A stretch of DNA of 25,688 bases from Pseudomonadota bacterium (GCA_031416315.1 JANOTL010000212.1:1-25688), one strand, 5' to 3'. Shown: positions 548 to 16,043, counted from the stretch's first letter. Translations and numbers: made by a program. The notes: generated from the letters alone by a model not told the origin.

Positions 548-565
548 GGCATTTCGGCAAATGCC
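548..565. promoter_or_regulatory. 7-4-7 inverted repeat GGCATTT-cggc-AAATGCC, possible operator or enhancer upstream of the CS2 hydrolase
   Basis: Perfect 7-bp arms in the intergenic region, about 125 nt upstream of the start codon. Confidence 0.3.
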
Positions 566-921: not shown

Positions 922-1314
922 TTATAGGCTCTCTAGGGCCTGAGCGATCCGCGTATCCGCTTGTGTCGCCAGTTTTTCCAACGCTGCATCGCCCAGAATT
1001 TTCATCAGTGACGATGGCTTCGCCAGCTCGATCGACACCTCTCCGGGGCGGACCTCGCGCACGACCGCATTGCATGGCAAGAGGCTGGCCACATCGGAAT
1101 TGGCCGTGAAGGCTTCAAATGCGAGCGTCGGATTGCAGGCGCCGAGGATCACGAGCCGTGGCATGTCCTTGCCGATTTTTTCCTTGATCTTAGTGTGCAT
1201 GTCGATGCGAGTCAGGATACCAAAGCCTACAGTTTGGAGTGACTTCGTCACCCGGTCGATGGCCGTGTCGAAGTCGCAGGCGATCTCGCGCTTGAAGCTG
1301 ATGTCACTGTTCAT
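922..1314 (-). CDS. DUF302 domain protein
   Basis: GFGILTRID...ILGACNP...LLPCNAVV pattern; 130 aa; GAGG RBS. Confidence 0.88.
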   Translation of the reverse strand: MNSDISFKREIACDFDTAIDRVTKSLQTVGFGILTRIDMHTKIKEKIGKDMPRLVILGACNPTLAFEAFTANSDVASLLPCNAVVREVRPGEVSIELAKPSSLMKILGDAALEKLATQADTRIAQALESL

Positions 1315-1326
1315 GGGGAGATCCTC

Positions 1327-1776
1327 CTATTTTGGCTCGACTTGGACGGATGCGGCGATCGAGTTCGCAATGATGCAGTTTGCATGCGCCTTTTCGTGCA
1401 GCTGCTTCAGCTCTTCGGCGTTGGGCGCTTTGTCGCCTCCAAATGTAATTTGCGGCTGTAGCAGCATGCTCTGAATACACAGCTTACCTTTGGCGTTTTT
1501 TTCGAGCCTGGCGACAGCGGTGTCTTGGTAGGAGTCGACGACGATCTTCGAGTTCGCCGCGATCGCCAAGAACGTGAGCATATGACAGCTCGCAAGTGCC
1601 GCGAGCAGCATATCCTCGGGGTTCGCAAGCCCAGGCTTGCCGTTGAAGTCTGGCGCCGCGGAGGCCTGATAGGTGAAGCCACCCGAGAGCTTTATCGTAT
1701 GGGTACGGTCGTAAGTTTTAGGCAAAAAGTCGGGCGTTGCTCGGGCCCAGCTCAAGCTGGCCATGAATTCGGACAT
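1327..1776 (-). CDS. OsmC/Ohr-family peroxiredoxin-like protein
   Basis: NPEDMLLAALASCHMLTF and AHANCIIANS supply the two catalytic Cys; GGAGG RBS. Confidence 0.9.
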   Translation of the reverse strand: MSEFMASLSWARATPDFLPKTYDRTHTIKLSGGFTYQASAAPDFNGKPGLANPEDMLLAALASCHMLTFLAIAANSKIVVDSYQDTAVARLEKNAKGKLCIQSMLLQPQITFGGDKAPNAEELKQLHEKAHANCIIANSIAASVQVEPK

Positions 1777-1806
1777 CAGTGCCTCCGTAAACTTTTAGCT
1801 TGGTTA

Positions 1807-1822
1807 TGCACAAATCATTCCC
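1807..1822 (-). promoter_or_regulatory. Weak sigma-54 -24/-12 motif upstream of the OsmC-family gene
   Basis: GGGAATGATTTGTGCA gives GG-N10-GC, placed so that the RBS would be transcribed; poor -24 match. Confidence 0.3.
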
Positions 1823-1909
1823 GGCAATGCTAGTCGGTCTGTTTAGCGGCGGATGTGTCATCTCGCGCTTAGTGCGTGATTCCGTGCTCGCGAGCGCGAC
1901 GCCAGAGCG

Positions 1910-2348
1910 TTAGGCTTCGAGGATCCGACGCCTTTCGCTCGCGGCCAAGGTCTCGGTGCCGTGGGCGTGTGGAGGACTTTCGCCCCTCAGCTCGAGAGTA
2001 AGATCCGCCAAGCATAGGGTACGCCGTCACCAATCGCGCAGGCGTATTCGACGACGTTACGCTGCTCGCGCACGTTTTCGCGCCAATTGTGGGCCGTCAG
2101 CGCATCGCGCGCCCTCGCTTCCAGGGCCCTCCGACGTCATCAGCTCCGACGATAACGTGGCGCAGTTGACGGCGTTGAACGGGCCGCTTCAAGCGGCGGT
2201 TGATCGTGTGGATCGCGCGCGCCGCGAGCTCCTTGCCTGTCCCGGTCTCGCCGCGCATCAAGACTGAAGCCTCAGTGACGGCGACTTTCTTCAGCAGCGC
2301 GAAGAAGTCCTGCATCTTCGTCGAGACGGTGACCATGCCTTGAAATTG
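1910..2348 (-). pseudogene. Sigma-54-dependent (NtrC/Fis-type AAA+) activator, internally deleted and frameshifted
   Basis: Across several frames: QFQGMVTVS..MQ, Walker A GETGTGKELAARAIH, GPFNAVNCATLSSELMTSE, then directly ARDALTAHNWRENVREQRNVVEYA, then DLTLELR...TLAASERRRILEA-stop. GAFTGA, Walker B and the HTH are missing. Confidence 0.85.
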
Positions 2349-2509
2349 GGTCGGCTTTACATCGGGACGTTGATGAGTCTTCGTCGGTATCGGAGTCCTT
2401 GGCCCGTCATTGGCGTCATTGCATCATTCCGTGCCAGTAAAGCTGAGGAAGGAGGCGGCGTTTCAAGAGATAGATGCTGCGCCGCAGCTACCAAGTGAGT
2501 TGGTCTGAT

Positions 2510-3328
2510 TCACTTCAAAACCTCCGTGACTGTGATGGCGATGGCCACGACCACCAGGAACCATCCGAAGAACTTTCGAACGCGGATCTCCGAGAGCTGG
2601 CGAGCAATGCGAATGCCCACGAGGATTCCCGCCGCGGCTAGGCCTGTAAAGGCCAAAAGCATAGGCCATGCCACGGTCTTGCCGACCAGCAGGTCGGCCA
2701 GGAAGCCGAAGAGGCTGTTTGCGGCGATGACGAAGAGTGACGTCGCGACGGCGCGCTTCATGGGCAGACGCTCGACAAGCGCCAGCGCAGGGACCAAGAG
2801 AAAGCCACCTCCCGCCCCGACCAAGCCTGTCAGAATGCCGACCGCGAAACCGTGTGTGGCGGAACGTGCCATGCCGGCCGGTCTGCCTTTCTCTTGTTCA
2901 GGCAAGGCGTCGTAGGCTTTCTTCCGCCGCAACATCCCGTAGGCTGACATGGCCATGGCCACCACTAGCGCTGCAACGACGAGCGAGTCTTTGCGTAGTG
3001 AGAGCTCGAAAGGCAAGCCGATCAGATCTGGTATGCGCGGAACGACGACGTTTCTCACCAGGTGAATCGCGGCGAATGCCGGCAGCGCGAAGCGCAGAGC
3101 AGCCGGGTAGTCGATCAGCCGGTCTTTCGCGTACCGCGCGGCGCCGATAGCACTGGTCGTGCCGACGATGAAGAGTGAGTAGATCGTCGCGACGCCTGGG
3201 GCGAGGCCGAATCCGTAGACGAGGACCGGCAAGGTAAGGATCGCGCCACCGCCGCCGACGATGCCAAGAAGCGCTCCTATCGCTAGCGCTGCTGCATAGG
3301 GGGCGACGCCGAGAAGGTCCGCGCTCAA
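2510..3328 (-). CDS. TauE/SafE-family sulfite exporter
   Basis: Repeated GIVGGGGAILTLP / GLVGAGGGFLLVP motifs, AVATSLFVIA, about 8 TM segments; TTG start overlaps the upstream stop. Confidence 0.92.
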   Translation of the reverse strand: MSADLLGVAPYAAALAIGALLGIVGGGGAILTLPVLVYGFGLAPGVATIYSLFIVGTTSAIGAARYAKDRLIDYPAALRFALPAFAAIHLVRNVVVPRIPDLIGLPFELSLRKDSLVVAALVVAMAMSAYGMLRRKKAYDALPEQEKGRPAGMARSATHGFAVGILTGLVGAGGGFLLVPALALVERLPMKRAVATSLFVIAANSLFGFLADLLVGKTVAWPMLLAFTGLAAAGILVGIRIARQLSEIRVRKFFGWFLVVVAIAITVTEVLK

Positions 3329-3552
3329 GCGCTGCGCTTGCGGAGGACCGGAAAGCCCTCCGCGTCCCAGGCGATGCTGGCAAGGAAGCCGAGCTCTCCG
3401 CGTGACAATAGGCCCAGAGAGAGACTTGCGCCAATGACGGCGTGAAGTGTCGCGTACTTATCGGTTTCGCGTACGTCGATGACTGCCAGCCCGCCCGCTG
3501 ATTCTGTGCTCAGGTCATAAAGTTCCGATGGGGCGATTGTTTTGATGGTCAT
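3325..3552 (-). pseudogene. Rhodanese-domain protein lacking its catalytic loop (75 aa)
   Basis: AAGGAGG RBS. N-terminal IKTIAPSEL...VIDVRETDKYATLHA and C-terminal AWDAEGFPV rhodanese motifs are present, but there is no Cys and no CxxGxR loop between them. Confidence 0.65.
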
Positions 3553-3582
3553 GCTATGTCCTCCTTCAGCCGGTCGCTGCAT

Positions 3583-3598
3583 CCCAAGAGTCGTGCCA
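3583..3598 (-). promoter_or_regulatory. Sigma-54-like promoter for the rhodanese-TauE unit (variant -12 TTGG)
   Basis: TGGCACGACTCTTGGG: consensus -24 box, correct spacing, TTGG instead of TTGC. Confidence 0.5.
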
Positions 3599-3704
3599 TC
3601 GACAATTCTCCGCCGGTATCGGAGGCTTAAGTGAGGACGGAGTAGTTTGACGCAACACCGTCGACCCAATCTGAACGAACCGATGTCTTGGCTCGTCTGA
3701 CTGT

Positions 3705-3720
3705 TGGCCCGAATCTTGGA
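3705..3720 (+). promoter_or_regulatory. Sigma-54-like promoter for the YeeE/YedE-dioxygenase unit (variant -12 TTGG)
   Basis: TGGCCCGAATCTTGGA upstream of a GGAGG RBS. Confidence 0.45.
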
Positions 3721-3746
3721 TGGTTTCAGGGATTGGAGGTGACGCG

Positions 3747-4166
3747 ATGCAGCATCCTTGGTTGATGGGACTCTCCGGCGGCGCGCTCATTGGGGTCGCG
3801 AGTGCGCTGCTCCTAGTGACGCTCGGGCGCATTTTTGGCGTCAGCGGTATGGTCGGCGGCGTCGTAGCCCCCAAGAGGGGCGACGTCTTATGGCGTGTAG
3901 GCGTCCTGGCGGGCCTTCTGACCGGCGGGGCGATCCTCGCGGCACTCTTCGCATCGGCGTTCGATGCGCAGGCCGTTCGGTCCTTGAGCACGACCATCGT
4001 CGCCGGTCTGTTGGTCGGCTTTGGGACTCAGCTCGGCGGCGGTTGCACGAGTGGGCACGGTATCTGCGGCGTCAGCCGCCTTGCGCCCCGCTCATTGGCG
4101 GCAACTGCGATCTTTGTTGCGACGGGGATGGTCGCGGCAACACTTTTCCATAAACTGGGGCAATGA
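3747..4166 (+). CDS. YeeE/YedE-family sulfur-compound transporter subunit
   Basis: GRIFGVSG, GLLVGFGTQLGGGCTSGHGICGVSRL...RS; GGAGG RBS before the ATG at 3747. Confidence 0.9.
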   Translation: MQHPWLMGLSGGALIGVASALLLVTLGRIFGVSGMVGGVVAPKRGDVLWRVGVLAGLLTGGAILAALFASAFDAQAVRSLSTTIVAGLLVGFGTQLGGGCTSGHGICGVSRLAPRSLAATAIFVATGMVAATLFHKLGQ

Positions 4167-4648
4167 CGATGGCAAAGGTTGCATGGGCTTATTTGTCGGG
4201 ATTGATCTTCGCGCTGGGGCTCGGGCTCTCCGGAATGACCAGACCTTCGAAGGTGATCGGGTTTCTCGATCTATCGGGTGCCTGGGATCCGTCGTTGCTG
4301 TTCGTAATGGGCGGCGCGATCGCCGTTTATGCCGTGGCGTTTCGCCTCGTGATGCGCCGGCGAGCTCCGGTCGCTGCTCCAACGTTCCAGGTGCCGCCGC
4401 GGCGCGCACCCGACCGCCGCTTGGCGATTGGCGCAGCTCTCTTTGGGCTCGGGTGGGGTCTAGGCGGTTATTGTCCCGGTCCAGGCCTGGTCGGGGCCGC
4501 TACGGGGAATGTTTCAGCGCTGACTTTCGTTGCGTCAATGGTGGCCGGGGTCTTTGCGTATTCGATCCTTCAGAAATGGCAAGCTCGGACCTCTTGGCGC
4601 TCGAACGCCAAAATTGATCCAATTGCGGAGGGTTCTCGTGCAGATTAA
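4163..4648 (+). CDS. YeeE/YedE partner subunit (DUF6691-like)
   Basis: SGMTRPSKVIGFLD..GAWDPSL and GWGLGGYCPGP; ATGA overlap with the upstream gene. Confidence 0.9.
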   Translation: MTMAKVAWAYLSGLIFALGLGLSGMTRPSKVIGFLDLSGAWDPSLLFVMGGAIAVYAVAFRLVMRRRAPVAAPTFQVPPRRAPDRRLAIGAALFGLGWGLGGYCPGPGLVGAATGNVSALTFVASMVAGVFAYSILQKWQARTSWRSNAKIDPIAEGSRAD

Positions 4649-5510
4649 AGCCTTCTTCGACAGCGCAACCTCGACTTTGACGTACGTCGTCTATGACGAA
4701 GCGACCCGAGATGCCGCGATCGTCGATCCGGTGCTCGACTTCGATCCCGCATCAGGCCGCATTTCGCGCGCATCGGTAGACGAGGTGATCGCATTTGTGC
4801 GCAGTGCCGGCCTTAACATTCATCTGATACTCGAGACGCACGCACACGCGGACCATCTATCCTCGTCGCAGGTTCTAAAGCGCGAGTTCCCAAAGGCAAA
4901 ACTGGCTATCGGCGACAACATAAGGATGGTTCAGGCCATGTTTAAGCCGCGGTACGCGCTGCCCGATGCATTCCCGACCGATGGCTCGCAGTTCGACCAG
5001 CTCCTCCACGACGGGGAGCGCGTCGAGGTGGAATCGCTCGCTTTCAACGTCCTATTTACTCCCGGTCACACCCAGGCGTGTTCGGCGTATGACTTTGACG
5101 GCCACGTGTTCACTGGCGACGCGCTGTTCATGCCCGACTACGGAACGGGCCGAACAGACTTTCCGGGCGGAAGCGCGGCTGATTTGTTCGCGTCGATCAA
5201 GGAGCGCCTCTATACATTGCCCGATGCGACAAAAGTCTTTACCGGCCACGACTACCAACCAGGCGGGCGACCCCTGCGTTACGAGTCGACGATCGGCGAG
5301 GAAAAACGTTCAAACATCCAGCTGAGCGTAGCAACGACTCGCGAAGAGTTCGTGGAATTCAGGAATAGCCGCGACGCGACGTTAGCGGCTCCGCGGCTGC
5401 TCCACCCGAGCGTGCAGGTCAACATTGACGCGGGCTATCTGCCGGCAGACGAGGCTAATGGCGTCTCCTACGTGAAGATTCCGCTCTCGGGAGTGTTCTT
5501 GGGAAGGTGA
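4638..5510 (+). CDS. Persulfide (sulfur) dioxygenase, MBL fold, ETHE1/Blh/SdoA-like
   Basis: IVDPVLD, ETHAHADH, TPGHT, FTGDALFMPDYGTGRTDFPGG, GHDY, RDATLAAPRL..PSVQVNI; GGAGG RBS before the GTG at 4638. Confidence 0.92.
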   Translation: MQIKAFFDSATSTLTYVVYDEATRDAAIVDPVLDFDPASGRISRASVDEVIAFVRSAGLNIHLILETHAHADHLSSSQVLKREFPKAKLAIGDNIRMVQAMFKPRYALPDAFPTDGSQFDQLLHDGERVEVESLAFNVLFTPGHTQACSAYDFDGHVFTGDALFMPDYGTGRTDFPGGSAADLFASIKERLYTLPDATKVFTGHDYQPGGRPLRYESTIGEEKRSNIQLSVATTREEFVEFRNSRDATLAAPRLLHPSVQVNIDAGYLPADEANGVSYVKIPLSGVFLGR

Positions 5511-5755
5511 TGCCCTGTAGCCGCCTAAGTGCCAGGGTGATGGTTAGGTTTCCTCTAACTGCACGGCGCCGCTTTCGCGCTCGCCGAGCGGTGCTGCTCG
5601 GCTCAATTGAAGACTAAGCGTAAAGGCGAGATACGTGCTGCCCTGGTCGGCATCGTGTCAGCCGCCCACCGCAGCCGATCAACGTTCGCAATGATATGGT
5701 CAGCCGCTTGATGGTCATGCTGCTCACGGATGATCCGCAACTGAGGGCCAGGTCC

Positions 5756-5783
5756 TTCCGTACCTCACGCGTGAGGTACGGAA
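5756..5783. repeat. Perfect 28-bp palindrome TTCCGTACCTCACGCGTGAGGTACGGAA
   Basis: Two 14-bp arms that are exact reverse complements, with no spacer. Confidence 0.95.
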
Positions 5784-5858
5784 CCCAACAGGAGGTAAGG
5801 ACTCCGAAAAATTTGGACCCCAGGTGGACCGCGGACTGGCACCAATAATTTCCGCAGC

Positions 5859-6026
5859 CTCGTTACGAATCTACGGCGTCGCTGGGGAGACGACGGGGTT
5901 GTCGAGCTCACGGCACTCATCGCCTTTCAGAACCTGTCGAGCCGCTTCAACGCGGCACTTGCGATCGTGCCGCAGGGTCTGTGTCAACGCCCACCGCATT
6001 TGCTTCCTGCGCCGACATTGGGTTGA
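5859..6026 (+). pseudogene. 3' remnant of an AhpD/carboxymuconolactone-decarboxylase-family gene
   Basis: Frame reads LVTNLRRRWGDDGVVELTALIAFQNLSSRFNAALAIVPQGLC..., typical of this family's C-terminus; the N-terminal part is absent. Confidence 0.65.
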
Positions 6027-6050
6027 CAGCGGGAAAAACCGCCTTACGTT
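6023..6050 (+). promoter_or_regulatory. Possible sigma-70 promoter for the small GGCCG ORF
   Basis: TTGACA-N16-TACGTT, with a GCGG-N6-CCGC inverted repeat in the spacer. Confidence 0.4.
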
Positions 6051-6086
6051 TACTTGGTCGACGGTATCCAATCTTAGGAGAGTTGT

Positions 6087-6254
6087 ATGTTCCCTAATTG
6101 GAAGAGAGATGACGCGAAGGCGGCCGAGCCGAAAGTGGCTACGAAGCCCGATGCCGGCGGTTGTTGCGGCGGCAAGGCCAAGACCGAGTCCGCCAAGCCG
6201 GCGGCAGTGGAAACGCCACCCGCAGGGAAGAAGAAGGGTGGCTGCTGCGGTTGA
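6087..6254 (+). CDS. 55-aa Lys/Ala-rich peptide with two GGCCG motifs, putative metal-binding
   Basis: AGGAG RBS 6 nt before the ATG; MFPNWKRDDAKAAEPKVATKPDAGGCCGGKAKTESAKPAAVETPPAGKKKGGCCG*; below the ORF-track size cutoff. Confidence 0.75.
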   Translation: MFPNWKRDDAKAAEPKVATKPDAGGCCGGKAKTESAKPAAVETPPAGKKKGGCCG

Positions 6255-6265
6255 CGGCCAACCGC

Positions 6266-7042
6266 TCAATGGTGCTTGAAGAAACCGACGCCGATGATGT
6301 CGTTCCAACCGGTCGTGTTGTGGCACTCGAAGCACTGATCGACGTTCGCATGCTCCTTTCCGGCAATTTTCTGCGAGATCATCGAAAAATGTCCCATCGA
6401 GTGGCTGGGGGGCGCTTGGTGGCATTGCACGCACTCTTTCGTGCGCGATGTCGGGTGTTGGTAACCGGGAACGACCCAGGACGAGAGCGCGTGACACTGA
6501 GCGCAATCGCTGCCGAAGCGCTTTGAGTGCGGATCTCCGCGATCGTGACATCCTGCGCAGTTGAGAGCTTCGCGCGCGGAGCCATCGTCGAAATGCTCTG
6601 GGCTTTCGATCCTCAACCAGGTTTCTAACGAATCTAGCGTGGCTTTGTAATTCGCGTCCCCGCTCGAAGCGCGCTCTAGAGCTCTCGCGCCCACCTTAGC
6701 GAGTTCGATGTGATCCATCGTGAGCGGCCGTACGTTCGCGGATTGATGCTCGAGGTGACACGTCGAGCACTCTTCAACGCTTGCGTGGAACGCGGTTGGT
6801 TGCCGGCCGAGCAAGCGCTCTGCATTCGCGTGACATGGGATGCACTTGGTGACCGTAACTCCAACGGTCGGCTCGTGGCACGCAGTGCAGCGGTCGCTGA
6901 GATAGTCGTGGCGAGGTGACAATGCACCCGGGCTGAAAAACTGTTGCGCTGCCGAGGACGCAGCGGCGAAACGCAGGAGCGAAAACACCGCCGCCGCGGC
7001 CACCAAGAGAATGAGCGTGGTCCAGATTGCTAGCTTCCTCAT
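6266..7042 (-). CDS. Membrane-anchored or exported heptaheme cytochrome c
   Basis: Seven CXXCH motifs (CTACH, CIPCH, CSTCH, CAGCH, CAQCH, CVQCH, CFECH), extra His as candidate distal ligands, hydrophobic N-terminus; ATG at 7042 overlaps the upstream TGA. Confidence 0.9.
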   Translation of the reverse strand: MRKLAIWTTLILLVAAAAVFSLLRFAAASSAAQQFFSPGALSPRHDYLSDRCTACHEPTVGVTVTKCIPCHANAERLLGRQPTAFHASVEECSTCHLEHQSANVRPLTMDHIELAKVGARALERASSGDANYKATLDSLETWLRIESPEHFDDGSAREALNCAGCHDRGDPHSKRFGSDCAQCHALSSWVVPGYQHPTSRTKECVQCHQAPPSHSMGHFSMISQKIAGKEHANVDQCFECHNTTGWNDIIGVGFFKHH

Positions 7043-7782
7043 CGCATCCACCGAAGTCCGTAATAGATTCCAGACCCGATGTGCATCGAGAGCAATGCGT
7101 AGAAGATCACCGAGAGGATGATGTGGAGCTTGATGCCGCGCGAAAACCAGCGTTTGAAAAGCTCATGTGTGCGTACGGCGTACTCCAGATCCGCTACAGA
7201 CTCGGCGATGCGCGTAACCTCCCCGACCGCCCCCCCGTACGGGAGTTGTAGTCCGACGGAGGCTAAGGCCGCGGCGAAGAAGGGCGCGCTCGGAAGGCCT
7301 CGCCTAGCAGAAGGCGACGTTTCGAGCACTCCCCAAGCACTGTCGAGATCACCCCTAGCCGTTTCCAGCAAGAGCAACTTGTCCGCGATTTCACGGCGAA
7401 CGTAAGTGAGCAGATATCGGACGACGAAACCACTGACGACGACGAGGAGCATCGCAGCCGTCAATGCCACTCCGAGCCAGCTATCGTACTTGTGGCCGGT
7501 ATGAACGACGGCGAGCAGAGGACCAAAAATTCCAGCGTATATGTGGCCTGTAAGGAGTGATTGCATCGACACATGTCGCGCGAGTCTCTTTTGGACGAAC
7601 GGGATTCGCTTTGCGACCGGGTAAACGAGCGGCAAGAGCATGAGGATTGCCGCGGCAATCCCGATCGCTGATCCGGCTCCGCTGCCGGCAAAGCGTGGAG
7701 CGCGATGGACGAGGAACCCGAGCCAGCCGAGTAGCAAGACACTTAGGACACCCGTGACGACGACGCGTTCACGCTCTTTCAT
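7039..7782 (-). CDS. Cytochrome-b / ferric-reductase-like membrane protein
   Basis: About 5 TM helices with two His pairs in helices (GHIYAGIFGPLLAVVHTGH; LHIILSVIFYALLSMHI). Confidence 0.75.
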   Translation of the reverse strand: MKERERVVVTGVLSVLLLGWLGFLVHRAPRFAGSGAGSAIGIAAAILMLLPLVYPVAKRIPFVQKRLARHVSMQSLLTGHIYAGIFGPLLAVVHTGHKYDSWLGVALTAAMLLVVVSGFVVRYLLTYVRREIADKLLLLETARGDLDSAWGVLETSPSARRGLPSAPFFAAALASVGLQLPYGGAVGEVTRIAESVADLEYAVRTHELFKRWFSRGIKLHIILSVIFYALLSMHIGSGIYYGLRWMR

Positions 7783-7784
7783 GG

Positions 7785-9743
7785 CTACGCCTCGACCGCA
7801 ATGGCCGTCTTGGGCTTGGCCTGGCAGGCGAGAATGATGCCGTTGGCCTTGTCAGCAGCATCGAGCGCCTCTTCGACGGCCATTTCCACCTCACCGGAGC
7901 TCATCCTCACTTTGCACAATCCGCAGGTGCCGACGCGGCAAGAAAACTCGATGCCGAAGCCGAGCTCCTCGGAAAGCTCGAGTACCGTTTGACCCTCGCG
8001 GATGTTCGTAGATTTGTTGCTCTTCAGGAACGTGACCAGCGGACCCGTCGCTGGTGCGGGCGGATCGACCGTGGTACCAGCCGGGGCGGGCATCGGTCTA
8101 ACAGCCCCAAATGCCTCGGTTTTAACCTGTGCCGACGGTACACCAGATTCCGTAAGCAGGGCCTTCGTTGCGTCCATCATCGCCGGTGGGCCACACAGAT
8201 GAATTCGCCGAGATGCCAAGTTCGGGACAGCCTTCCTCAGCAAGTCCGCCGTCAGCCGCCCGCGCGGACCCTTCCATTCAGTGCCTTCGGTGCGCGACAT
8301 CGTGACTGTGACGTGCAGCTTTGAGTTGATGCGCTGAAGCTCTGCAACATGCTTTGCAAAGATGTAGTCGATCGGAGCACGACACGCGTAAATGAAGAAG
8401 ACCTCGCCGGCCCAAGACTTCTCTGTAAGGTTGCGAGCGATGCTCATCATCGGCGTGATGCCGACACCGCCTGCGATGAGGACGATGCTGTCCGATTCAG
8501 TGCCGTCAAACGTAAAGCGGCCCACGGGACCGCTGGCCTCGATTTCGTCGCCGACCTCGAGTAGATCAACCATATGCCGTGACACCGCGCCCCGCGGCTC
8601 CCGACGAACGGTCAGCTCCACGTATTGCCGCGCAGTCGGAGAGGACGAAAGCGAATAGGAGCGATTCATTCTCGCGCCGCCGATTGCGAAGGCGACGTTG
8701 AGAAATTGTCCCGGCACGAACGTGAATGGCACCATCGCGTCACCTGATATTGGCACGAGGCGGAACGTCTTGACGCTGGGGGTTTCCGTGACGACCGAAG
8801 AAATGCGCAGTCTTCCTTGCCATTTCTCCTTTGCCGGCACCGCCGCCGTGGAGCCGGCTACGATCCCAGGGGACGAGCTTTGGAGTGACGCCTTGGGCCT
8901 AGGCGCCGGCGTCGGCGATCCAGGCGGTGGTCCTTCGGTATCCGGTTCGATACGACCAAAGAGCGCAGCCGCACGACGCATCTTGAAAAAATACATAACG
9001 ACCATCGCTACCGCGAACGCGACGAGCAGCACCATGGCGAACAGGTGAAACGTCGCCTCACTGCGCGTCGGTCGTAGACTTCCGGCACTGATCGGGGACG
9101 CAAGATTCATCTCTCGTTTGAACCAGTCGAGGGCAAGATTTCGCGGCGCTTTGCCTTCCGCTAGAACCCGCCGAGCCGCGATCCCTGCTCCAAGCACGGC
9201 GAGGCCCTCGCGCATAATGCCAACGGAGATCTCCATGGCCGAGTGGTCGCCTGCTTGCGTCGCTCGGTCGAGCGCTTGGGATCCGGTCGCGAGGCGCCCC
9301 ATACCCTCGCGGATTTGTTGACTCGCGAGCTCGTCGATCTCAGCGTGCCTTTCGGGCGTGAGCGCTGGAAGCGTCATCAGCGTCGCGTAGATCGGGGTCC
9401 TCCCGGCAGCCGGCGGCCCCATCATTCCAGCCATCATTCCGGCCATCATGCCAGCCATTCCGGCTGCCGCTGGCGCTCCCGGCATGGCGGCGCCGACCAT
9501 TCCCGGAGATGCGGGGACCGTCGACGACGTCATGCCGGCCATAGGCTGGCCATCGGATTGGGCCGCGGCCGCGCTTTGAGGCGGGGCAGCGGTCGTCCCC
9601 GCTGCGGGAGTTCCGGTCGGCGCACTCGCACCAGGGTGATGGCTAGCGTGCTCATCTGCCGTTTGCGCGCCAACAGATTGCGTGATGAGCGCGAGTGCGA
9701 GTGCGAGTGCGAGCGCGACGCCGCTGATGTGCGCGTTCGCCAT
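7785..9743 (-). CDS. Membrane-anchored FAD/NAD(P)H oxidoreductase with C-terminal [2Fe-2S] domain and exported Met/His-rich N-terminus
   Basis: Signal peptide, DEHASHHP, AGMM repeats, a TM helix followed by KMRR, then PGQF, RSYSLSS, GGVGITP, CGP, and CRVGTCGLC...LACQ. Confidence 0.9.
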   Translation of the reverse strand: MANAHISGVALALALALALITQSVGAQTADEHASHHPGASAPTGTPAAGTTAAPPQSAAAAQSDGQPMAGMTSSTVPASPGMVGAAMPGAPAAAGMAGMMAGMMAGMMGPPAAGRTPIYATLMTLPALTPERHAEIDELASQQIREGMGRLATGSQALDRATQAGDHSAMEISVGIMREGLAVLGAGIAARRVLAEGKAPRNLALDWFKREMNLASPISAGSLRPTRSEATFHLFAMVLLVAFAVAMVVMYFFKMRRAAALFGRIEPDTEGPPPGSPTPAPRPKASLQSSSPGIVAGSTAAVPAKEKWQGRLRISSVVTETPSVKTFRLVPISGDAMVPFTFVPGQFLNVAFAIGGARMNRSYSLSSSPTARQYVELTVRREPRGAVSRHMVDLLEVGDEIEASGPVGRFTFDGTESDSIVLIAGGVGITPMMSIARNLTEKSWAGEVFFIYACRAPIDYIFAKHVAELQRINSKLHVTVTMSRTEGTEWKGPRGRLTADLLRKAVPNLASRRIHLCGPPAMMDATKALLTESGVPSAQVKTEAFGAVRPMPAPAGTTVDPPAPATGPLVTFLKSNKSTNIREGQTVLELSEELGFGIEFSCRVGTCGLCKVRMSSGEVEMAVEEALDAADKANGIILACQAKPKTAIAVEA

Positions 9744-9751
9744 GACTTTCC

Positions 9752-10549
9752 TCAGTGCGAAAGAAAGACCTGTCGCTGATCGGCGCTCAGAACTTTCCCC
9801 GCTCGACCGACTGATTTGATGAAATCGAGTCGTTGATCGGTCCGAAGCTTCTCGATTTCCTTGACCTTGTTCGCGATGCCTTTTTCGTTCGGAGCATCCG
9901 CCCCGGTCAACGAAAACAGCTGCTGCTCCGATTGAACGATCTTTGTCTGCAGCTCGCTCGTTCTCGCGAGCGATAGACGCTTGATTTCGGTCAGGTCCGT
10001 CGTTTGCTTGCTCGTCAGGTTGAGTTTGCCCGCTTGATCGAGAAAGAAGTCGATCGATCCAACGTGGTAGAGTCGGGTCGCATCCGGTGCGCCGACCGTG
10101 GTCGGCTGCGCCGCCCCGCCCATCGGCGGGGAAGCGTCGACTTGGTTGCCGCGATTCTGCATGCCCCCCATTTTACCGTTTGGATCCGCCATTCCTTGCC
10201 CCGCGCCCATCTGGCCTGCGCCGGCGGCTGGCGCCATTCCCATCATCCCCATCATCCCCATCATCTGATTTTGCATCGCTGGTGGCATCATGCCCATGCC
10301 CATTCCCTGACCCTGCGCCCCAGACCCTACGCCCGGCTGCGTCGTCTGCATGTTTGGCATGTTCTGACTGGGTTGTTGCGGACTGGTAGTTGACTGCGGA
10401 GCTGTCGCCGCCGGCATCTGACCCATGGGCATTTGCATCATGTCATCCTCCGCGTGAGCTAGGGACGGTCCGACAACGATGCCGATGATGACGCCGAGTG
10501 ACCTCAATGCGAGACCGGTGCTACGGTTCCGATGAATCTGATTGAACAT
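9752..10549 (-). CDS. Periplasmic Met-rich Spy/CpxP-like heavy-metal-binding protein
   Basis: GGAG RBS before the ATG at 10549; signal peptide ending AHA; long Met/Gly/Gln region; helical C-terminal domain with LNLTSKQ...LSADQR motifs. Confidence 0.75.
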   Translation of the reverse strand: MFNQIHRNRSTGLALRSLGVIIGIVVGPSLAHAEDDMMQMPMGQMPAATAPQSTTSPQQPSQNMPNMQTTQPGVGSGAQGQGMGMGMMPPAMQNQMMGMMGMMGMAPAAGAGQMGAGQGMADPNGKMGGMQNRGNQVDASPPMGGAAQPTTVGAPDATRLYHVGSIDFFLDQAGKLNLTSKQTTDLTEIKRLSLARTSELQTKIVQSEQQLFSLTGADAPNEKGIANKVKEIEKLRTDQRLDFIKSVGRAGKVLSADQRQVFLSH

Positions 10550-10611
10550 GAGCTTTCTCCACTCGAGACAAGGTAAAAATTGACGCGGACGCGAAGTGCG
10601 AACGCGCGGTA

Positions 10612-12339
10612 TCAATGACCGGTGGCGGCTGGCTGGGAGTCATTCAAAACGGTGAAGCCCATTGCCATACCGGCAGAAAGGTGCTCGGCGATGTGGCAGT
10701 GAGCTAACCAACGCCCTACGTTCGAGAGCTCCAGAACGATGTCGACCTTGTCGCCTTCGGGGACGAGGACCGTGTCCTTCCACACGAGGTTGCGAACTGG
10801 TACGCCGTTGACCGCCGCGATGACGAAGCGCTGGCCGTGAAAGTGAATTGGGTGCTGCATCGGATGATCGGACTTCGGATCGTTGAAGAGCCGAACCTTG
10901 ACGAAGTCGCCCTTTTTGAAGGTCCACTTGATGTCCATGTTTTCGAGCTTGGTGGCGTCGTCGACGAGCTTCCAGACGACGTTTTTGTCGTCACTTGCGG
11001 CATTCATCGACGCCATTCCGTCTTCCCATTCGATGCCGCCCTCCTTAGCCCGCTCGACGGTCGTATCCGGGCCTGAGCCTTTGATGGACGGCGCCATGGG
11101 CATCGAGGCTTGGGTCGTAGAAACGTCGAGCCGAAGCTCGTGGGTTACAGCAATACCGAGCTTTGGCTTGACGTCTCTGAACGCGGCGGCCGTCGCGTCT
11201 GGGGAGCGTAGGGTCTCGAACGGATTTGGTAATTTTCTGGCCGCGCCCGCGCGCACTTCGATCTTACCGAGTCGTGTCGGCGAGCCGACGGGTTTTTGGT
11301 TGACGATCTCGAAGGTGCCTCGTTCTGCGAACTGCACCTCAACGATGACGCGTTCCGATGGTCCGATCGTGACGGATTCTACCCAGGTTTCGTGCTCATA
11401 GAGCCCGTTGTCGCCGCCGACGAGCTTCAGGCGCAGTCCGGGAATGTGGAACGCGAACGTGCGGGTGTTCGCCACATTCGTCAAAAAGAGGCGAACCACT
11501 TCACCTTGCGTCGCCGAGAGCGTGAAGTCCGTAGCTCCATTGATCAGCATGCTGTTGCCGAACCGACCCGTCAGTGTATGGGTCGACCGCTCGCGAAAGT
11601 ATGGTTCCGCCGCAGGGCCGCTCTGAACATCGTCGAGGAGGAGGGGGACTTCCCGGTGCACCGCGTTGTAAAAGTTTTTGTCGGTCGGTTCGACCCAAAA
11701 ATTGCCGTAGAGCCCCGCGTCCTGCGTATAGTCCTCGTGGACGTGAGCGTGATACCAGAAGATCCCGGCATCGGGGAAGGCCAGCGCGTATTCGTGCGAG
11801 CGCCCCGGCTCGATCGCCGCCTGCCCGATGCCGACGACGCCGTCGTTTTTCTCGTCGATCCTGAGACCGTGCGGATGAAGTGTGGTCTCGACGTCCATTT
11901 TGTTGGCAATGACGAGACGAATCTTCGCGCCTTGTTTGACTTTGATGATGGGACCGGGAATCGAGCCGTTGTAGGCAAGGCGCCGGATCCAAGTGCCGTC
12001 GACTTTTTGCCGTGCAGGCGCGGCGGTAAGGGTGATGAGCGCCCCGTCTGCGACCTCAACGATCTCCATCGCCCGCGCTTCCGGAAGTCCCGTCGGACTG
12101 TCTGAGAATTTTTCCGATTCAGAAGCAGTGCTTGGCATAGGCGCCATTTTTTCTGGCAAAGCATGCGGTGTATCGCTAGCTCCCATCATGCGCAGACCAT
12201 CCGGCACCTCGCCGGCGACGGCGGGGGCGGGATCAGGAGGCATGACCATGGCGGCTTGGCTGAACGCAGCAGTGGGAGCCGTGGAGAGACTGAGAAGGCT
12301 CAAGGCCAGTATCTTGAATTTGATGATTTGGGTGCGCAT
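10612..12339 (-). CDS. Multicopper oxidase (CueO/CopA-MCO-like)
   Basis: All four Cu motifs: HPHG, WYHAH, HPIHFHG, HCHIAEHLSAGM; signal peptide; GAGGG RBS before the ATG at 12339. Confidence 0.95.
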   Translation of the reverse strand: MRTQIIKFKILALSLLSLSTAPTAAFSQAAMVMPPDPAPAVAGEVPDGLRMMGASDTPHALPEKMAPMPSTASESEKFSDSPTGLPEARAMEIVEVADGALITLTAAPARQKVDGTWIRRLAYNGSIPGPIIKVKQGAKIRLVIANKMDVETTLHPHGLRIDEKNDGVVGIGQAAIEPGRSHEYALAFPDAGIFWYHAHVHEDYTQDAGLYGNFWVEPTDKNFYNAVHREVPLLLDDVQSGPAAEPYFRERSTHTLTGRFGNSMLINGATDFTLSATQGEVVRLFLTNVANTRTFAFHIPGLRLKLVGGDNGLYEHETWVESVTIGPSERVIVEVQFAERGTFEIVNQKPVGSPTRLGKIEVRAGAARKLPNPFETLRSPDATAAAFRDVKPKLGIAVTHELRLDVSTTQASMPMAPSIKGSGPDTTVERAKEGGIEWEDGMASMNAASDDKNVVWKLVDDATKLENMDIKWTFKKGDFVKVRLFNDPKSDHPMQHPIHFHGQRFVIAAVNGVPVRNLVWKDTVLVPEGDKVDIVLELSNVGRWLAHCHIAEHLSAGMAMGFTVLNDSQPAATGH

Positions 12340-12403
12340 CGTGCCCTCGAATTCGGAATCTGGTGCTACGGACATTCCCTCCAACGCAAGAATGGGTCCA
12401 AGC

Positions 12404-14773
12404 CTAGGTCGCTCGCCGCAACCGAAGGGCGTTGCCGATGACTGAGACCGAACTGAGGCTCATGGCCAGCGCGGCGATCATCGGGCTCAGCAAGATCCCG
12501 AAAGCCGGAAATAGGACTCCGGCCGCGACCGGTATTCCGAGCACGTTGTATCCAAATGCGAAGAATAGGTTCTGCTTAATGTTTGCCATCGTCTGACGGC
12601 TTATGCGTCGCGCGCGCACGATTCCGAGCAGGTCGCCCTTGACTAAGGTCACGCCAGCGCTCTGCATGGCGACGTCAGTCCCAGTCCCCATCGCGATGCC
12701 GACTTGTGCCTGGGCGAGAGCCGGAGCATCGTTGATCCCGTCTCCAGCCATCGCGACGAATCGCCCTTGGGCTTGCAGGTTCTTGATGGCGTCGACTTTT
12801 TGGTCGGGAAGGACCTCGGCGATCACGTCGTCCAGAGCTAGCGCTTTCGCGACGGCTAGCGCGGTCGTGCGGCTGTCACCGGTCAACATCACGATCCGAA
12901 GACCTTCGGCGCGAAGGGCGTGGAGAGCCTCTCGGGCGGTCTCCTTGATCGGATCCGCGACGGTCACGATGCCGGCGAGGCTGCCTCCGACTGCGACAAA
13001 CATCGCGGTTTGCCCCTCAGCACGCGCCGATTCGGCTGCCTCTGCGAGAGCGTCGGTGCTGACGCCATGATCGTCCAAAAGCCGCTGGTTCCCGAGGAGG
13101 ACCACGCGGCCGCCGACGGTTCCTTTGACGCCTTTGCCGGTGAGAGACTCGAAGTCCGCGGCGACAAGATCCGATAGTCCATCGGCACTTGCGCCGTCCA
13201 CAATCGCAGCGGCGAGCGGATGCTCGCTGCCGCGTTCTAGGCTCGCGGCGAGCTGAAGAATCTCGTTTCGGTCCTTACCTGGGGCTGGAACGACCGCTGC
13301 GAGGCGAGGTTTCCCAAGTGTCAGGGTGCCCGTTTTGTCGACGACGAGCGTGTCGACCTTGCGTAGCGTCTCGATCGCCTCGGCATTTTTGAATAGGACG
13401 CCATGGGTCGCGGCCTTGCCCGTCGCCACCATAATCGACATCGGCGTGGCAAGGCCGAGCGCGCAGGGACACGCGATAATAAGTACCGCGACTGCGTTGA
13501 TCAAACCGTAAGCCATCGCAGGCTCAGGGCCCAAAGTCGCCCAGACGACGAATGTGGCAAGGGACACGATCACTACGGCTGGGACGAAGTAACCTGACAC
13601 GAGATCGGCAAGCTTTTGGATCGGCGCACGGCTTCGCTGTGCCTCACCGACCATGCGAACAATCTGCGAAAGGAGTGTATCGGCTCCAATTCGTTCCGCC
13701 CGCATCAGGAACCCACCGGTTCCATTGACGGTCGCACCGATGACCTTTTCACCGGCGACCTTCTCGATCGGAATCGGCTCACCCGTGATCATCGACTCAT
13801 CGATCGCACTTTTCCCTTCGAGGACGACGCCGTCGGTCGGAACCTTTTCGCCCGGCCGCACGCGGAGTCGATCGCCGATCGCGATGTTTTCGAGCGCAAC
13901 GTCTTCTTCGCGCCCGTCCGACGAGACGCGCCGGGCGCTTTTCGCAGACAGCCCGAGCAAGGCTTTGATCGCGGATCCCGTTTGACGACGGGCGCGGAGC
14001 TCCATGACTTGACCGAGAAGAACGAGCGTCACGATCGCCGCAGCGGCTTCGAAGTAGACGCCAACGAGCCCCATCGGATCATGAAAGGAGAGCGGGAAGA
14101 GGCTCGGAGCGATCGTTGCAACCAGGCTGTACGCATACGCAACGCCGACGCCAAGGCCAATGAGCGTGAACATATTGAGGTGGCGGCTCAAAAGTGACTG
14201 CCAGGCGCGCACGAAGAACGGCCAGCCTGCCCAAAGGATCACGGGCGTCGAAAGCGCGAGCTCGCCCCATTGCATGATGCGTCCACCCGAAGCGCCTACT
14301 TCGAAGCCAGGGAACGAATGGGACATCGCCATTGCGATCACGATGACTGAAAGGGGAACGCTCATCCAAAATCGATGCGTCATGCTCCGAAGCTCGTCGT
14401 CCTCCGCTTGGCCGTTCGTGGGTTCCATCGGCTCCAGGGACATACCGCAGATCGGGCAATTTCCGGGAGCGTTGCGGATGATTTCCGGATGCATGGGGCA
14501 GGTATACCTAGCGTCGACTGCTGCCGGCTTAGGCAACGGGACGCCGTTCTGAACGACCTCGGACGCCTTCAAGAAGCTAGCTGGGGCCTTGTCGAACTTT
14601 TGGCGGCAGCTGGCACTGCAGAACCGATACTCATGACTCAGGTAGGTCGATTGGTGGGTCGAATCGGGGCTGACTTTCATTCCACAAACAGGATCGATGA
14701 GAGGGGCATGCGCGCCCGCGACGCCGAGTGAAGGCCCTCTTTCGGAATGATCGTTTGATGGGTCTTCGAGCAT
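12404..14773 (-). CDS. copA: Cu(I)/Ag(I)-translocating P1B-1 ATPase with YHS-like and YTCPMHP metal-binding domains
   Basis: DPVCGM...FCSASC, YTCPMHP...[47 protein letters not shown]. Confidence 0.96.
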
Positions 14774-14799
14774 GAGAAGGCTCCTCTTTGCGATCTAGC

Positions 14800-14815
14800 T
14801 GCAAAAGCAGATCCC
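14800..14815 (-). promoter_or_regulatory. Possible sigma-54 promoter for the copA operon
   Basis: GGGATCTGCTTTTGCA: GG-N10-GC, strong -12, weak -24. Confidence 0.35.
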
Positions 14816-14891
14816 GACAGCGCGTGTGTGTGTCTTCACGCAAGCCTTGGCGATCGGGTGCGAGAGGCGCGTGAGATGGCTCACCTTTGAG

Positions 14892-14907
14892 CGGCACGCG
14901 GCCTGCA
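14892..14907 (+). promoter_or_regulatory. Sigma-54 promoter motif for the gene divergent from copA
   Basis: CGGCACGCGGCCTGCA: GG-N10-GC, about 30 nt before the ATG. Confidence 0.5.
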
Positions 14908-14936
14908 TGTCGCTACTGTCGCGGGAGTGATGCTTG

Positions 14937-15395
14937 ATGAGCGATGCGAGAACGGTCGTGAGAGCGCATGGTTTTCCTTGGAGAGGTCTAGGCGCCGCAA
15001 CACTGCTCGCTTTCGCCCTGCATTTCGTGTGGGAAGTGATTCAATGTCGCCTTTTTTTCATACACTTGGAATTGCCTCCGACCTGGGGCGCGATGCTTTT
15101 CGCAACTGTCGGTGACGTAGCAATGACGCTCTTCGCCTATTGCGTGGTCGCGGTTGGAGCGAGGGACGCGCGTTGGTTTCTGCGGCGACCGTGGCGACTG
15201 TCCGCGGTAACCTTGCTCGAGCTCTCCGCGGCCGTACTTGCAGTCGCGGTCGAGCGAATGGGCCTTGATATGGGTCGATGGTCTTACAGAGCGGGTGCGC
15301 CGATGCTACCGATGGTTGGCATCTCGCTCATTCCGGTCGCGCAGTTGATGCTGCTGTTTCCGGCCACGTTCGGCGGAGGACGTGCCTTTCGTTGA
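14937..15395 (+). CDS. Hypothetical membrane protein (about 4 TM) divergent from copA
   Basis: Hydrophobic ORF with FALHFVWE, ATVGD, VE...GRWSY...P motifs; GGGAG RBS. Confidence 0.75.
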   Translation: MSDARTVVRAHGFPWRGLGAATLLAFALHFVWEVIQCRLFFIHLELPPTWGAMLFATVGDVAMTLFAYCVVAVGARDARWFLRRPWRLSAVTLLELSAAVLAVAVERMGLDMGRWSYRAGAPMLPMVGISLIPVAQLMLLFPATFGGGRAFR

Positions 15396-15486
15396 AATCG
15401 AGCCGGCAAAGCTCAAAACCTTGTTCAAGGTCGCAGCTCGATCCACTGGCACTGCCGGCTAACGGATAGAATCCTTCGAGGCAGTC

Positions 15487-15711
15487 TTGAGCACCGGACG
15501 CAATGATCCGTGCCCGTGCGGCAGCGGTCAGAAGTACAAGAAGTGTTGTCTTGCGCGATCGACCGCAGCGCAGGCAGAAGATTTCGAATATCACCGCCTT
15601 CGTGAAATCGAAGCTCGAATGATTCCGAAGCTCATGCGGCACGCCCGGAAGCCTCGAAATTCCTCCATCAGGGCGAGATCGTCTACGCCGCGACCACGCC
15701 TCCCATTCTAG
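15487..15711 (+). pseudogene. SEC-C motif protein, probably truncated
   Basis: [18 protein letters not shown] at the N-terminus; the ORF ends after 74 aa next to the att-like region. Confidence 0.6.
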
Positions 15712-15812
15712 GCCGTGTCATGAACATCGGCATGGCACACTAGGAACGCAGACGTTACCACTAATGAATCTAAGTTTAGGACTCGTTACTAGCCGGCGAG
15801 CCCTGCGAGAAA

Positions 15813-15980: not shown

Positions 15981-16043
15981 TGGAGGGGTGAAAAAACACA
16001 CTTTGTTGTCCCTCCTCTCTATTGCAAGGCCTAGACTCGCCAA

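Follow-up and report, generated by a model that had tools for sequence, protein, structure and literature searches.

A four-gene module embedded in a bacterial copper-resistance operon and its likely role as a split electron chain to the periplasm

Background

Resistance of bacteria to copper is ordinarily described in terms of efflux, sequestration and oxidation of Cu(I). Here we examine four adjoining genes at positions 6,266 to 10,549 of a 25,688-bp stretch of DNA from a Pseudomonadota bacterium (GCA_031416315.1, JANOTL010000212.1), which encode a Met-rich protein, a reductase, a membrane protein and a multiheme cytochrome c within a copper-resistance operon. The stretch analysed, hereafter the window, is one entire contig of a genome bin of 6.36 Mb that is 93% complete. 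To our knowledge, none of the four genes corresponds to a described component of the Cop, Pco, Cue or Cus systems.

The closest described systems include the NOX/FRE flavocytochromes, with eukaryotic NOX, the yeast Fre1 ferric/cupric reductases and, among bacteria, SpNOX (PMC5676040, PMC11031084). In Fre-MsrQ-MsrP of Escherichia coli, as the accessible part of one report has it, a separate cytoplasmic NAD(P)H flavin reductase and a membrane b-heme protein serve the protection of the envelope (PMC12525009). With regard to copper, the accessible sections of a 2020 review name CcoG and NDH-2 as bacterial cupric reductases and state that specific bacterial cupric reductases had been presumed absent until CcoG; those sections mention no heme-based, periplasm-facing bacterial cupric reductase and treat heme/NADPH surface reductases as the eukaryotic solution (PMC7558416). 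Two genes named Orf1 and Cyt, from a hydrogenase cluster of Alteromonas macleodii, are regarded in the available part of their description only as possible hydrogenase accessory genes, with no function assigned (PMC3102683). Apart from this one printed trace, our searches of the literature outside subscription journals returned no description of the module or its function, and no account of it as an electron conduit. This agrees with a preliminary reading of the window, made by a model from the sequence alone (the sequence-only reading), which had called it the best candidate in the window for an undescribed system.

Results

The module and its proposed role

Six consecutive genes on the minus strand make up the array, namely those for copA, a multicopper oxidase, the Met-rich protein, the reductase, the membrane protein and the heptaheme cytochrome c, and the last four constitute the module. 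The Met-rich periplasmic protein (9752-10549) has 265 aa counted from an ATG at 10549. It is followed by the reductase (7785-9743, 652 aa) with Pfam domains FAD_binding_6, NAD_binding_1 and Fer2, by the membrane protein (7039-7782, 247 aa), for which five membrane helices are predicted and neither Pfam nor NCBIfam has a family, and by the cytochrome (6266-7042, or from a GTG at 7051; 258 aa) with seven CxxCH motifs. The sequence-only reading had described these genes as tightly coupled and as lying directly downstream of copA and the oxidase on one strand, and both statements are confirmed: 8 nt separate the Met-rich stop codon from the reductase ATG, 2 nt separate the reductase stop codon from the membrane-protein ATG, and the membrane-protein gene ends in an ATGA that also holds the start codon of the cytochrome (ATG at 7042).

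We scanned one genome per species and obtained 157 stretches with a relative of the membrane protein, of which the best 80 loci were examined with flanks of up to 8 kb. The reductase is found in 78 and the cytochrome in 77 of the 80, in the order and on the strand seen in the window, and several of the misses are loci that end at the gene. The gap between reductase and membrane protein is mostly 2-4 nt in these related loci. Conservation of gene order over the 80 loci, and of the CxxCH motifs and histidines of the cytochrome over 34 homologues, is far beyond chance. Neighbourhood conservation with cop genes, which the sequence-only reading had named as a check on its proposal, turned out positive as well, with copper genes beside the module in most of the longer loci (39 of 49; see below).

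We read the four genes as a split trans-membrane electron-export chain, likely ending in periplasmic copper reduction, and assign this reading a probability of roughly 0.5. Its parts differ in strength, since an NAD(P)H-to-periplasm chain as such is probable and copper as the acceptor is about an even bet. NAD(P)H would reduce FAD at the cytoplasmic side, and electrons would pass from FAD to the C-terminal [2Fe-2S] cluster. The cluster would give single electrons to an inner b heme (H80 and H220) and then to an outer b heme (H94 and H234) of the membrane protein, from which they would reach seven bis-His c hemes. This order of carriers (NAD(P)H > FAD > 2Fe-2S > heme b > heme c), already put forward in the sequence-only reading, fits the domains, the four invariant histidines and the predicted topology. 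The acceptor would be copper held on the His/Met motifs of the cytochrome (PPSHxMxHFxM and KHH), on the reductase head, where the ligands would be EHASHHPG, the Met run and H233/M237/M247, or on the Met-rich partner. Copper is proposed because His/Met motifs are conserved on the cytochrome, the reductase and the Met-rich partner; we take these motifs to be of the kind known from copper-binding periplasmic proteins. Cu(II) would be reduced to Cu(I), for Met-rich carriers and Cu(I) exporters, or further to insoluble Cu(0). In many relatives, the NADPH may come from a dedicated glucose-6-phosphate dehydrogenase (G6PD), in some cases with a YHS domain, together with glucan-degrading enzymes. Taken as a whole, the module is real, conserved and mobile, and a split heme wire from NAD(P)H to the periplasm, for copper handling, is what it most likely represents.

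Reductase

Three parts can be recognised in the reductase. Residues 1-227 (9063-9743) form a predicted periplasmic head with a signal-peptide-like start, the motif EHASHHPG, a Met-rich run and a helical hairpin. A single membrane helix follows at residues ~228-256 (8976-9062), which stands out in hydropathy and is a helix in the AlphaFold2 (AF2) model. The remainder (7785-8975) is the predicted cytoplasmic FNR-Fer2 part, with the FAD/NAD(P)H module at residues 319-527 and the [2Fe-2S] domain at residues 575-645. The Pfam scores of FAD_binding_6 (49.8 bits), NAD_binding_1 (66.8 bits) and Fer2 (54.7 bits) are all above their cut-offs. When 30 long-form homologues are aligned, EHASHHPG (H32, H35, H36) is invariant, as are the plant-type [2Fe-2S] ligand cysteines C602, C607, C610 and C640. 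In the membrane helix, H233 and M247 are invariant and M237 is near-invariant, and KMRR follows on the predicted cytoplasmic side. The conservation of head and helix recurs across 63-66 loci. Because of the positive-inside rule, we place the head in the periplasm and the catalytic part, by prediction, in the cytoplasm. The AF2 model has a mean pLDDT of 75, and the helices of the periplasmic hairpin exceed 90.

The domains and the four cysteines assign the protein to the class of FNR with a C-terminal plant-type ferredoxin (PDR/Hcr/PaaE/GbcB-like). It reaches no NCBIfam equivalog; GbcB, Hcr and PaaE are the best matches and stay below their cut-offs (GbcB 213.7 versus 500 bits). The sequence-only reading had called it an FAD/NAD(P)H-[2Fe-2S] reductase, which is right as to the domains, but a plain soluble FNR it is not, since it carries the periplasmic His/Met head and the membrane helix. 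Head and helix are kept in 67 of the 80 loci, either fused or encoded just upstream. The head is fused to the reductase in about 32 loci, as in the window, and in about 30 a short FNR-Fer2 ORF (open reading frame; 349-462 aa) has the head domain directly upstream, these being either true split genes or frame errors.

Membrane protein

Close homologues of the membrane protein number more than 1,800. Among the 120 best of those listed, length is 244-249 aa and identity 70-77%, and every entry with a name from its source is called 'hypothetical protein'. A library clustered at 50% holds 775 representatives at E <= 0.001. Seven columns are invariant over 55 homologues (26-77% identity), namely H80, H94, G118, H220, H234, G242 and W245. 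The histidines form two pairs with a spacing of exactly 14 residues, one on predicted helix 3 (H80/H94) and one on predicted helix 5 (H220/H234). This is the ferric-reductase-type trait of a His pair, spaced by 13-14 residues, in each of two membrane helices. From these two pairs the protein is predicted to bind two b hemes. The label '4-His membrane protein' of the sequence-only reading was inexact as a count, the protein having 8 His in total, and correct for the four that are invariant.

The AF2 model (pLDDT 92.1, pTM 0.83) has five membrane helices, the fourth and fifth of which are joined by a long helical hairpin (residues ~126-214). Loop charges taken with the AF2 helices predict a cytoplasmic location for the N-terminus and the hairpin. 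Because of this positive-inside pattern and the modelled helices, one histidine of each pair should lie near each face of the membrane, H80 and H220 near the inner and H94 and H234 near the outer face, which would be the geometry of a bis-heme path. When 48,161 chains were compared by VIA-align, first place went to a designed bundle with two hemes, 7ah0_A (Z 10.7, rmsd (root-mean-square deviation) 2.5 A, 101/104 residues, model range 37-236), and the di-heme superoxide oxidase of E. coli, 5oc0_A, came in at rank 23 (Z 9.6, rmsd 3.4 A, 133/174 residues). The remaining rows mostly match the hairpin alone, and no NOX chain is among the 50 rows. By analogy, the membrane protein may work like a di-heme four-helix core.

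Its membership in a known heme-b family is not established. We obtained no Pfam match at E <= 0.01 and no NCBIfam match, and an ESM Atlas search returned unnamed clusters only. PDB profile searches with the membrane protein gave a single match of any use, to 5o0t_A (the NOX5 membrane domain) at a non-significant E of 0.44, with H80/H94 aligned to both of its helix-3 histidines. The Ferric_reduct profile (PF01794) finds nothing in the genome of the window; the same profile finds six above-cut-off proteins in its relatives and also gives matches in control genomes. The Ni_hydr_CYTB profile (PF01292) matches neither the membrane protein nor anything else in the genome of the window.

Three longer, fused forms of the membrane protein were counted, all with DUF547 (PF04784) and none with the reductase or the cytochrome, which is weak evidence. 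In the metagenome proteins P0272-P0274 and P0125, DUF547 is fused at the C-terminus. Another candidate, P0178, had been taken for a fusion of reductase and membrane protein and was rejected, since its linker looks like the 2-nt gap read through in a shifted frame. Genomes related to that of the window contain distant relatives of the membrane protein (L085:1700-2659 and L087:1800-2582), with 26-37% identity over ~85-105 residues around H80/H94 and, in one of them, a sub-threshold match to DUF4405. Both adjoin Fer4 and Pyr_redox NAD(P)H flavoproteins, and because of this neighbourhood they suggest a wider superfamily in which membrane His-proteins are paired with cytoplasmic flavo-FeS reductases.

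Cytochrome c and Met-rich protein

The cytochrome has an N-terminal hydrophobic segment (residues 4-35) that is an anchor or a signal. All seven CxxCH motifs are invariant over 34 homologues, which bears out the 7-heme cytochrome c of the sequence-only reading, and so are H45, H86, H99, H111, H172, H196 and H214 (numbered from the ATG at 7042). These seven extra histidines are enough for bis-His ligation of every heme. A PPSHxMxHFxMIS motif is conserved, and a C-terminal KHH is near-invariant. The Pfam families Cytochrome_C7 (36 bits) and Cytochrom_c3_2 (33.5 bits) are matched above their cut-offs, and by its CxxCH set, distal histidines and N-terminal hydrophobic segment the protein is a multiheme cytochrome c of the class III/c7-like type. 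Exactly seven CxxCH motifs are present in 73 of the 75 complete cytochrome ORFs of related loci, the other two having six and five. A PDB profile search with the cytochrome found no solved relative (best E 0.067). As a side observation, some homologues of the cytochrome carry an inserted AGCCG loop.

The Met-rich ORF has a GGAG ahead of its ATG at 10549, and its frame is open up to a TTG at 10615. A signal-peptide-like N-terminus and the Met count (24 Met among residues 51-170 of the long ORF) fit the earlier assignment as a Met-rich periplasmic protein. A middle part rich in Met, Gly and Gln leads to a putative C-terminal 'Metal_resist' domain of the Spy/CpxP/ZraP-like kind. The match to Metal_resist (PF13801) is 19.2 bits, under the cut-off of 29.2; the counterparts at the same position in loci L013, L059, L047 and L072 reach 32.7-42.7 bits, above it. 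A counterpart on Bradyrhizobium plasmid pBBta01 is annotated 'Spy/CpxP family protein refolding chaperone'. Met-rich/Metal_resist proteins were found in 51 of the 80 loci by unmasked tblastn, a count that low complexity may inflate, and in 24 with masking and a 40% coverage rule. The Alteromonas counterpart, used as query, likewise matched 51 of the 80 loci. Between the reductase head and the Met-rich protein we found low-complexity similarity only.

Copper genes and NADPH-producing enzymes

A length of at least 12 kb is reached by 49 loci. In 39 of these, a gene for a P1B ATPase, CopB or a multicopper oxidase is present, and the number rises to 42 when the Met-rich protein is included. On a Sphingomonas plasmid, the island beside the trio of reductase, membrane protein and cytochrome holds a heavy-metal-responsive (MerR-type) regulator, a copA-type oxidase, copB, DUF2933 and a P-type ATPase. 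On a Methylophaga plasmid, the corresponding island holds DUF411, an ATPase and a complete ccm operon.

Unexpectedly, and beyond what the sequence-only reading had noticed, a G6PD gene is present in 24 of the 80 loci, 23 times co-oriented with the module and often directly after the cytochrome. By our estimate, chance would place a single-copy housekeeping gene within 8 kb of the module far less often than this. The co-location supports NAD(P)H as the donor and suggests a high flux. An N-terminal YHS domain adjoins the G6PD in nine loci (L014, L010, L023, L030, L036, L038, L068, L073 and L076), and the YHS-G6PD at L014:9550-11154 was confirmed by Pfam. An apparent overlap of cytochrome and G6PD in L014 was discarded as an alternative-frame artefact, the G6PD ORF beginning past the cytochrome stop codon. 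A central enzyme of NADPH production does not ordinarily carry a metal-binding domain such as YHS, and its presence suggests a copper-regulated supply of NADPH. Further sugar enzymes near the module are 6-phosphogluconate dehydrogenase (5 loci), GH15 glucoamylase types (16 and 10 loci) and GH130 (9 loci); in the Sphingomonas island, alcohol and succinate-semialdehyde dehydrogenases (ADH and SSADH) take the place of the sugar enzymes. We also observed, in 32 loci, a CBM48/AMPK-glycogen-binding-like protein of ~105 aa with no signal peptide and a Cys-rich tail (WCCRPGC...CGDC), whose gene in L059 (5677-5994) sits between the Met-rich gene and the reductase.

Distribution

At least 15 phylum labels are represented among the 80 loci. 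A tree of the membrane protein, made by a quick method, needs at least 27 changes of phylum label and has short paths between phyla. No close homologue of the membrane protein was found in 40 relatives of the genome of the window, from genus to order level. Because of the mixed-phylum tree with its short paths, and of this absence among the relatives, the distribution points to horizontal spread of the module. Homologues lie on 54 plasmid records (17 from Sphingobium, 7 from Alteromonas, 5 from Legionella, 4 from Rhizorhabdus, and others), half of which (27) are conjugative. Culturable carriers include Variovorax sp. WDL1, Sphingomonas sanxanigenens NX02 and Alteromonas macleodii.

Two of the plasmids merit separate mention. 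On pBBta01 of Bradyrhizobium sp. BTAi1 (L081), where similarity to the membrane protein occurs in three places, one reductase gene copy is interrupted by an IS3 element, a further pair of Spy/CpxP and reductase genes is found 7 kb off, and a gene with a glycogen-debranching domain adjoins the cytochrome. On pAM1A3 of Alteromonas macleodii (L096), a Met-rich-type gene, the reductase, the membrane protein and the cytochrome occupy 7213-11475, directly upstream of hynD, hupH, hynS and hyp genes, with the hydrogenase genes at 12726-19325; this set contains the Orf1 and Cyt of the published HynSL cluster.

Remainder of the operon and the window

The first gene of the array is the P1B-type copper ATPase copA (12404-14773), with Pfam E1-E2_ATPase and an N-terminal YHS domain plus HMBD; it scores 591.8 bits against NCBIfam TIGR01511, above the cut-off of 397. 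The three-domain multicopper oxidase (10612-12384; Pfam Cu-oxidase_3, Cu-oxidase and Cu-oxidase_2) matches NCBIfam CueO and copper_res_A, both below cut-off. Having a P1B copper ATPase and a multicopper oxidase in one array, the operon as a whole belongs with the copper resistance determinants of the Cop/Pco/Cue kind. A scan of 5400-15500 for promoters and terminators gave counts not above those of shuffled sequences, and no metal-responsive regulator was recognised adjoining the operon in the window. Genes for c-type cytochrome maturation are present in the host genome.

Divergent from copA is an ORF at 14934-15395 on the plus strand (153 aa, hydrophobic) with only a sub-threshold match to DUF7378. 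Convergent on the end of the cytochrome gene is another plus-strand ORF at 6087-6254, of 55 aa and rich in Lys, Ala and Pro, with no Pfam match and with two GGCCG motifs, one of them at the extreme C-terminus. A GGCCG/GCCCG tail also ends small YHS-domain proteins of seven related loci (e.g. L006:3283-3468 and L080:3617-3802), and this type of tail may be a Cu(I)-thiolate tail. A sulfur-related cluster (22-5510) adjoins the operon and comprises a beta-carbonic-anhydrase-like ORF, DUF302, OsmC, a TauE/SafE exporter, a split YeeE/Sulf_transp pair (3720-4166 and 4163-4648, DUF6691) and a persulfide-dioxygenase-like protein of the metallo-beta-lactamase fold (NCBIfam Blh, 329.9 bits, under the cut-off of 625).

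Discussion

Several results weigh against reading the module as a heme chain that reduces copper. As to the hemes, the case for heme b binding consists of the histidine spacing and a weak structural analogy. The sequence-only reading had equated an FNR plus a di-heme membrane domain with the architecture of NOX, the ferric reductases and Fre-MsrQ, and this holds as an analogy only. Beside the absence of a Ferric_reduct match, hhalign of the membrane-protein alignment against ferric-reductase-domain proteins of related genomes (6 proteins, then 14 short and 4 long ones) gave probabilities of 2.8%, 0.2% and 1.2%, and against 11 Ni_hydr_CYTB proteins of relatives 1.1%. VIA-align Z values under ~13 are common for helical bundles, and those of 7ah0_A and 5oc0_A fall within that range. 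Foldseek against the PDB gave no match at E <= 0.001, the best being an ABC exporter at E 0.21. As to copper, production of Cu(I) in an oxic periplasm opposes the accepted role of the neighbouring Cu(I)-oxidising multicopper oxidase; 10 of the 49 long loci lack copper genes in their flanks, a number that falls to 7 once the Met-rich protein is included; some annotators call homologues of the membrane protein, on several plasmids, 'iron reductase'; and the Alteromonas set adjoins a [NiFe] hydrogenase cluster. As to the donor, there is no G6PD on the contig of the window and no G6PD_C match in its 93%-complete genome.

The alternative that survives best keeps the chain as proposed and gives it another acceptor, such as Fe(III), as iron supply under copper stress, or Ag(I)/Au(III), or O2 and reactive oxygen species. 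The 'iron reductase' labels and the loci without ATPase, oxidase or CopB gene speak for it, bis-His multiheme cytochromes are in general unspecific metal reductants, and silver is also handled by P1B ATPases and by CopA/CopB-type systems. We nevertheless consider another acceptor unlikely, as His/Met motifs of the copper-binding type are conserved on three of the four proteins, copper genes are the commonest neighbours, and no iron-uptake genes were seen in the annotated loci.

Less likely again is a chain that feeds a periplasmic protein, either the multicopper oxidase or, as the sequence-only reading had suggested, the repair of oxidised Met-rich proteins. An oxidase is part of the operon, 42 of the 80 loci have an oxidase of one type or another within 8 kb, the Met-rich Spy/CpxP-like protein belongs to the conserved set, and Fre-MsrQ-MsrP offers a precedent (PMC12525009). 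However, oxidases draw their electrons from substrates and need no reductase, and their type differs among loci whereas the four-gene set is constant. Hexacoordinate bis-His hemes are unable to reduce sulfoxides themselves. A tblastn search for an MsrP-like molybdoenzyme, with ORFs beside msrQ in six related genomes as queries (one of them confirmed as Oxidored_molyb), found it in none of the 80 loci, which leaves repair lacking its catalyst.

It is improbable that there is no continuous chain at all, with a hemeless 247-aa protein whose histidines bind copper, as a channel or sensor, and with the reductase and the cytochrome serving separate tasks. This would account for the lack of a family match, a significant fold match or profile homology to a known b-type cytochrome, and His and Met in membrane helices also mark copper transporters. 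Against it, each of two helices carries a His pair of the same 14-residue spacing, unchanged in 55 sequences, which is the classic bis-heme signature; the membrane protein is always flanked by a donor domain for single electrons on one side and a multiheme acceptor on the other, with gaps of 2-4 nt and overlaps; and its best structural analogues are two-heme bundles.

The weakest alternative, a wire that runs inward or both ways from a periplasmic donor such as [NiFe] hydrogenase through the cytochrome to NAD(P)+ or a membrane pool, has in its favour the position of the pAM1A3 set upstream of hydrogenase genes and one further locus (L064) with hypF/D/E and a fragment of the hydrogenase large subunit upstream, but is improbable, given that L064 is the only one of the 80 close loci with hydrogenase genes, that the NADPH-producing enzymes co-oriented in 24 loci argue for NADPH as donor, that the redox couples of copper are too positive for the reduction of NAD(P)+, and that Orf1 and Cyt were dispensable for maximal HynSL activity in E. 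coli in an assay of maturation rather than physiology (PMC3102683, available part).

Outward electron export, likely to copper, remains our preferred reading, and a more elaborate form of it can be formulated only tentatively: we consider it possible, though on the doubtful side, that the module is a mobile, self-fuelled copper-reducing battery, in which glucan breakdown and a copper-sensing YHS-G6PD would feed a split NOX-like wire, evolved anew from unrelated components, that reduces His/Met-held copper to Cu(I) or Cu(0). If this were true, bacteria would have in it their first dedicated cupric reductase facing the periplasm, and copper resistance would gain, next to efflux and oxidation, a third arm that plasmids have carried through at least 15 phyla. 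More generally, the module looks built for delivering reducing power to the periplasm, with copper-ligand motifs of its own and, in many hosts, its own NADPH supply. If copper is what it reduces, the picture of periplasmic copper chemistry would have to be revised, and the periplasmic or extracellular Cu(0)/Cu(I) particles that some bacteria reportedly form could in part be explained. On the same condition, the module would also offer a compact NAD(P)H-to-periplasm wire for bioelectrochemistry and a new family of di-heme membrane proteins.

Comparison with known systems

The NOX/FRE flavocytochromes resemble the module, by analogy, in the path from NAD(P)H through FAD to two stacked b hemes, in His pairs of 13-14-residue spacing carried by helices 3 and 5, and in an acceptor on the outside. 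The predicted N-terminus is inside in both, and the reductase membrane helix runs straight into the FNR-type domain, like helix 6 of NOX. The five helices of the membrane protein (N-terminus inside) together with the reductase helix (running from outside to inside) resemble, in predicted topology, a NOX cut between helices 5 and 6, with no homology detected. The module differs in splitting the function over two polypeptides, in adding a [2Fe-2S] cluster between flavin and hemes, and in having a heptaheme cytochrome c as output and a periplasmic His/Met-rich head. It differs also in family, as there is no Ferric_reduct match, hhalign probabilities do not exceed 2.8%, and NOX/FRE proteins are absent among the top Foldseek and VIA-align rows.

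Fre-MsrQ-MsrP likewise appears to have a separate flavin reductase feeding a membrane protein and sending electrons to the periplasm. However, MsrQ is a ferric-reductase-domain protein with a molybdoenzyme as partner, whereas the membrane protein of the module is unrelated to it by sequence, and the module has no linked MsrP, a multiheme output and a copper context. With CybB (5oc0) and the designed 4D2 (7ah0), the membrane protein may have in common a four-helix core able to hold two bis-His hemes; CybB works with quinone, whereas the partners here would be a ferredoxin domain and a cytochrome c. CymA, ImcH and CbcL, known from extracellular electron transfer, are also membrane-anchored multiheme c-type proteins that send electrons to the periplasm towards metals. 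They do so by oxidising quinol in respiration, whereas the predicted donor of the module is NAD(P)H by way of flavin and [2Fe-2S], in a resistance island.

CcoG and NDH-2, for which the accessible sections of the 2020 review propose reduction of Cu(II) to Cu(I) in copper homeostasis, are the nearest in the suggested reaction (PMC7558416). According to the same sections, CcoG has two [4Fe-4S] clusters and serves the assembly of cbb3 oxidase, and NDH-2 acts unspecifically through quinol (PMC7558416); both differ from the module in lacking hemes and a periplasm-facing multiheme output. Finally, Orf1 and Cyt of the HynSL cluster in the Deep ecotype of Alteromonas macleodii (PMC3102683, available part) are homologues of the membrane protein (Orf1, 36% identity) and of the cytochrome (Cyt), and they have the same reductase and Met-rich-type gene upstream.

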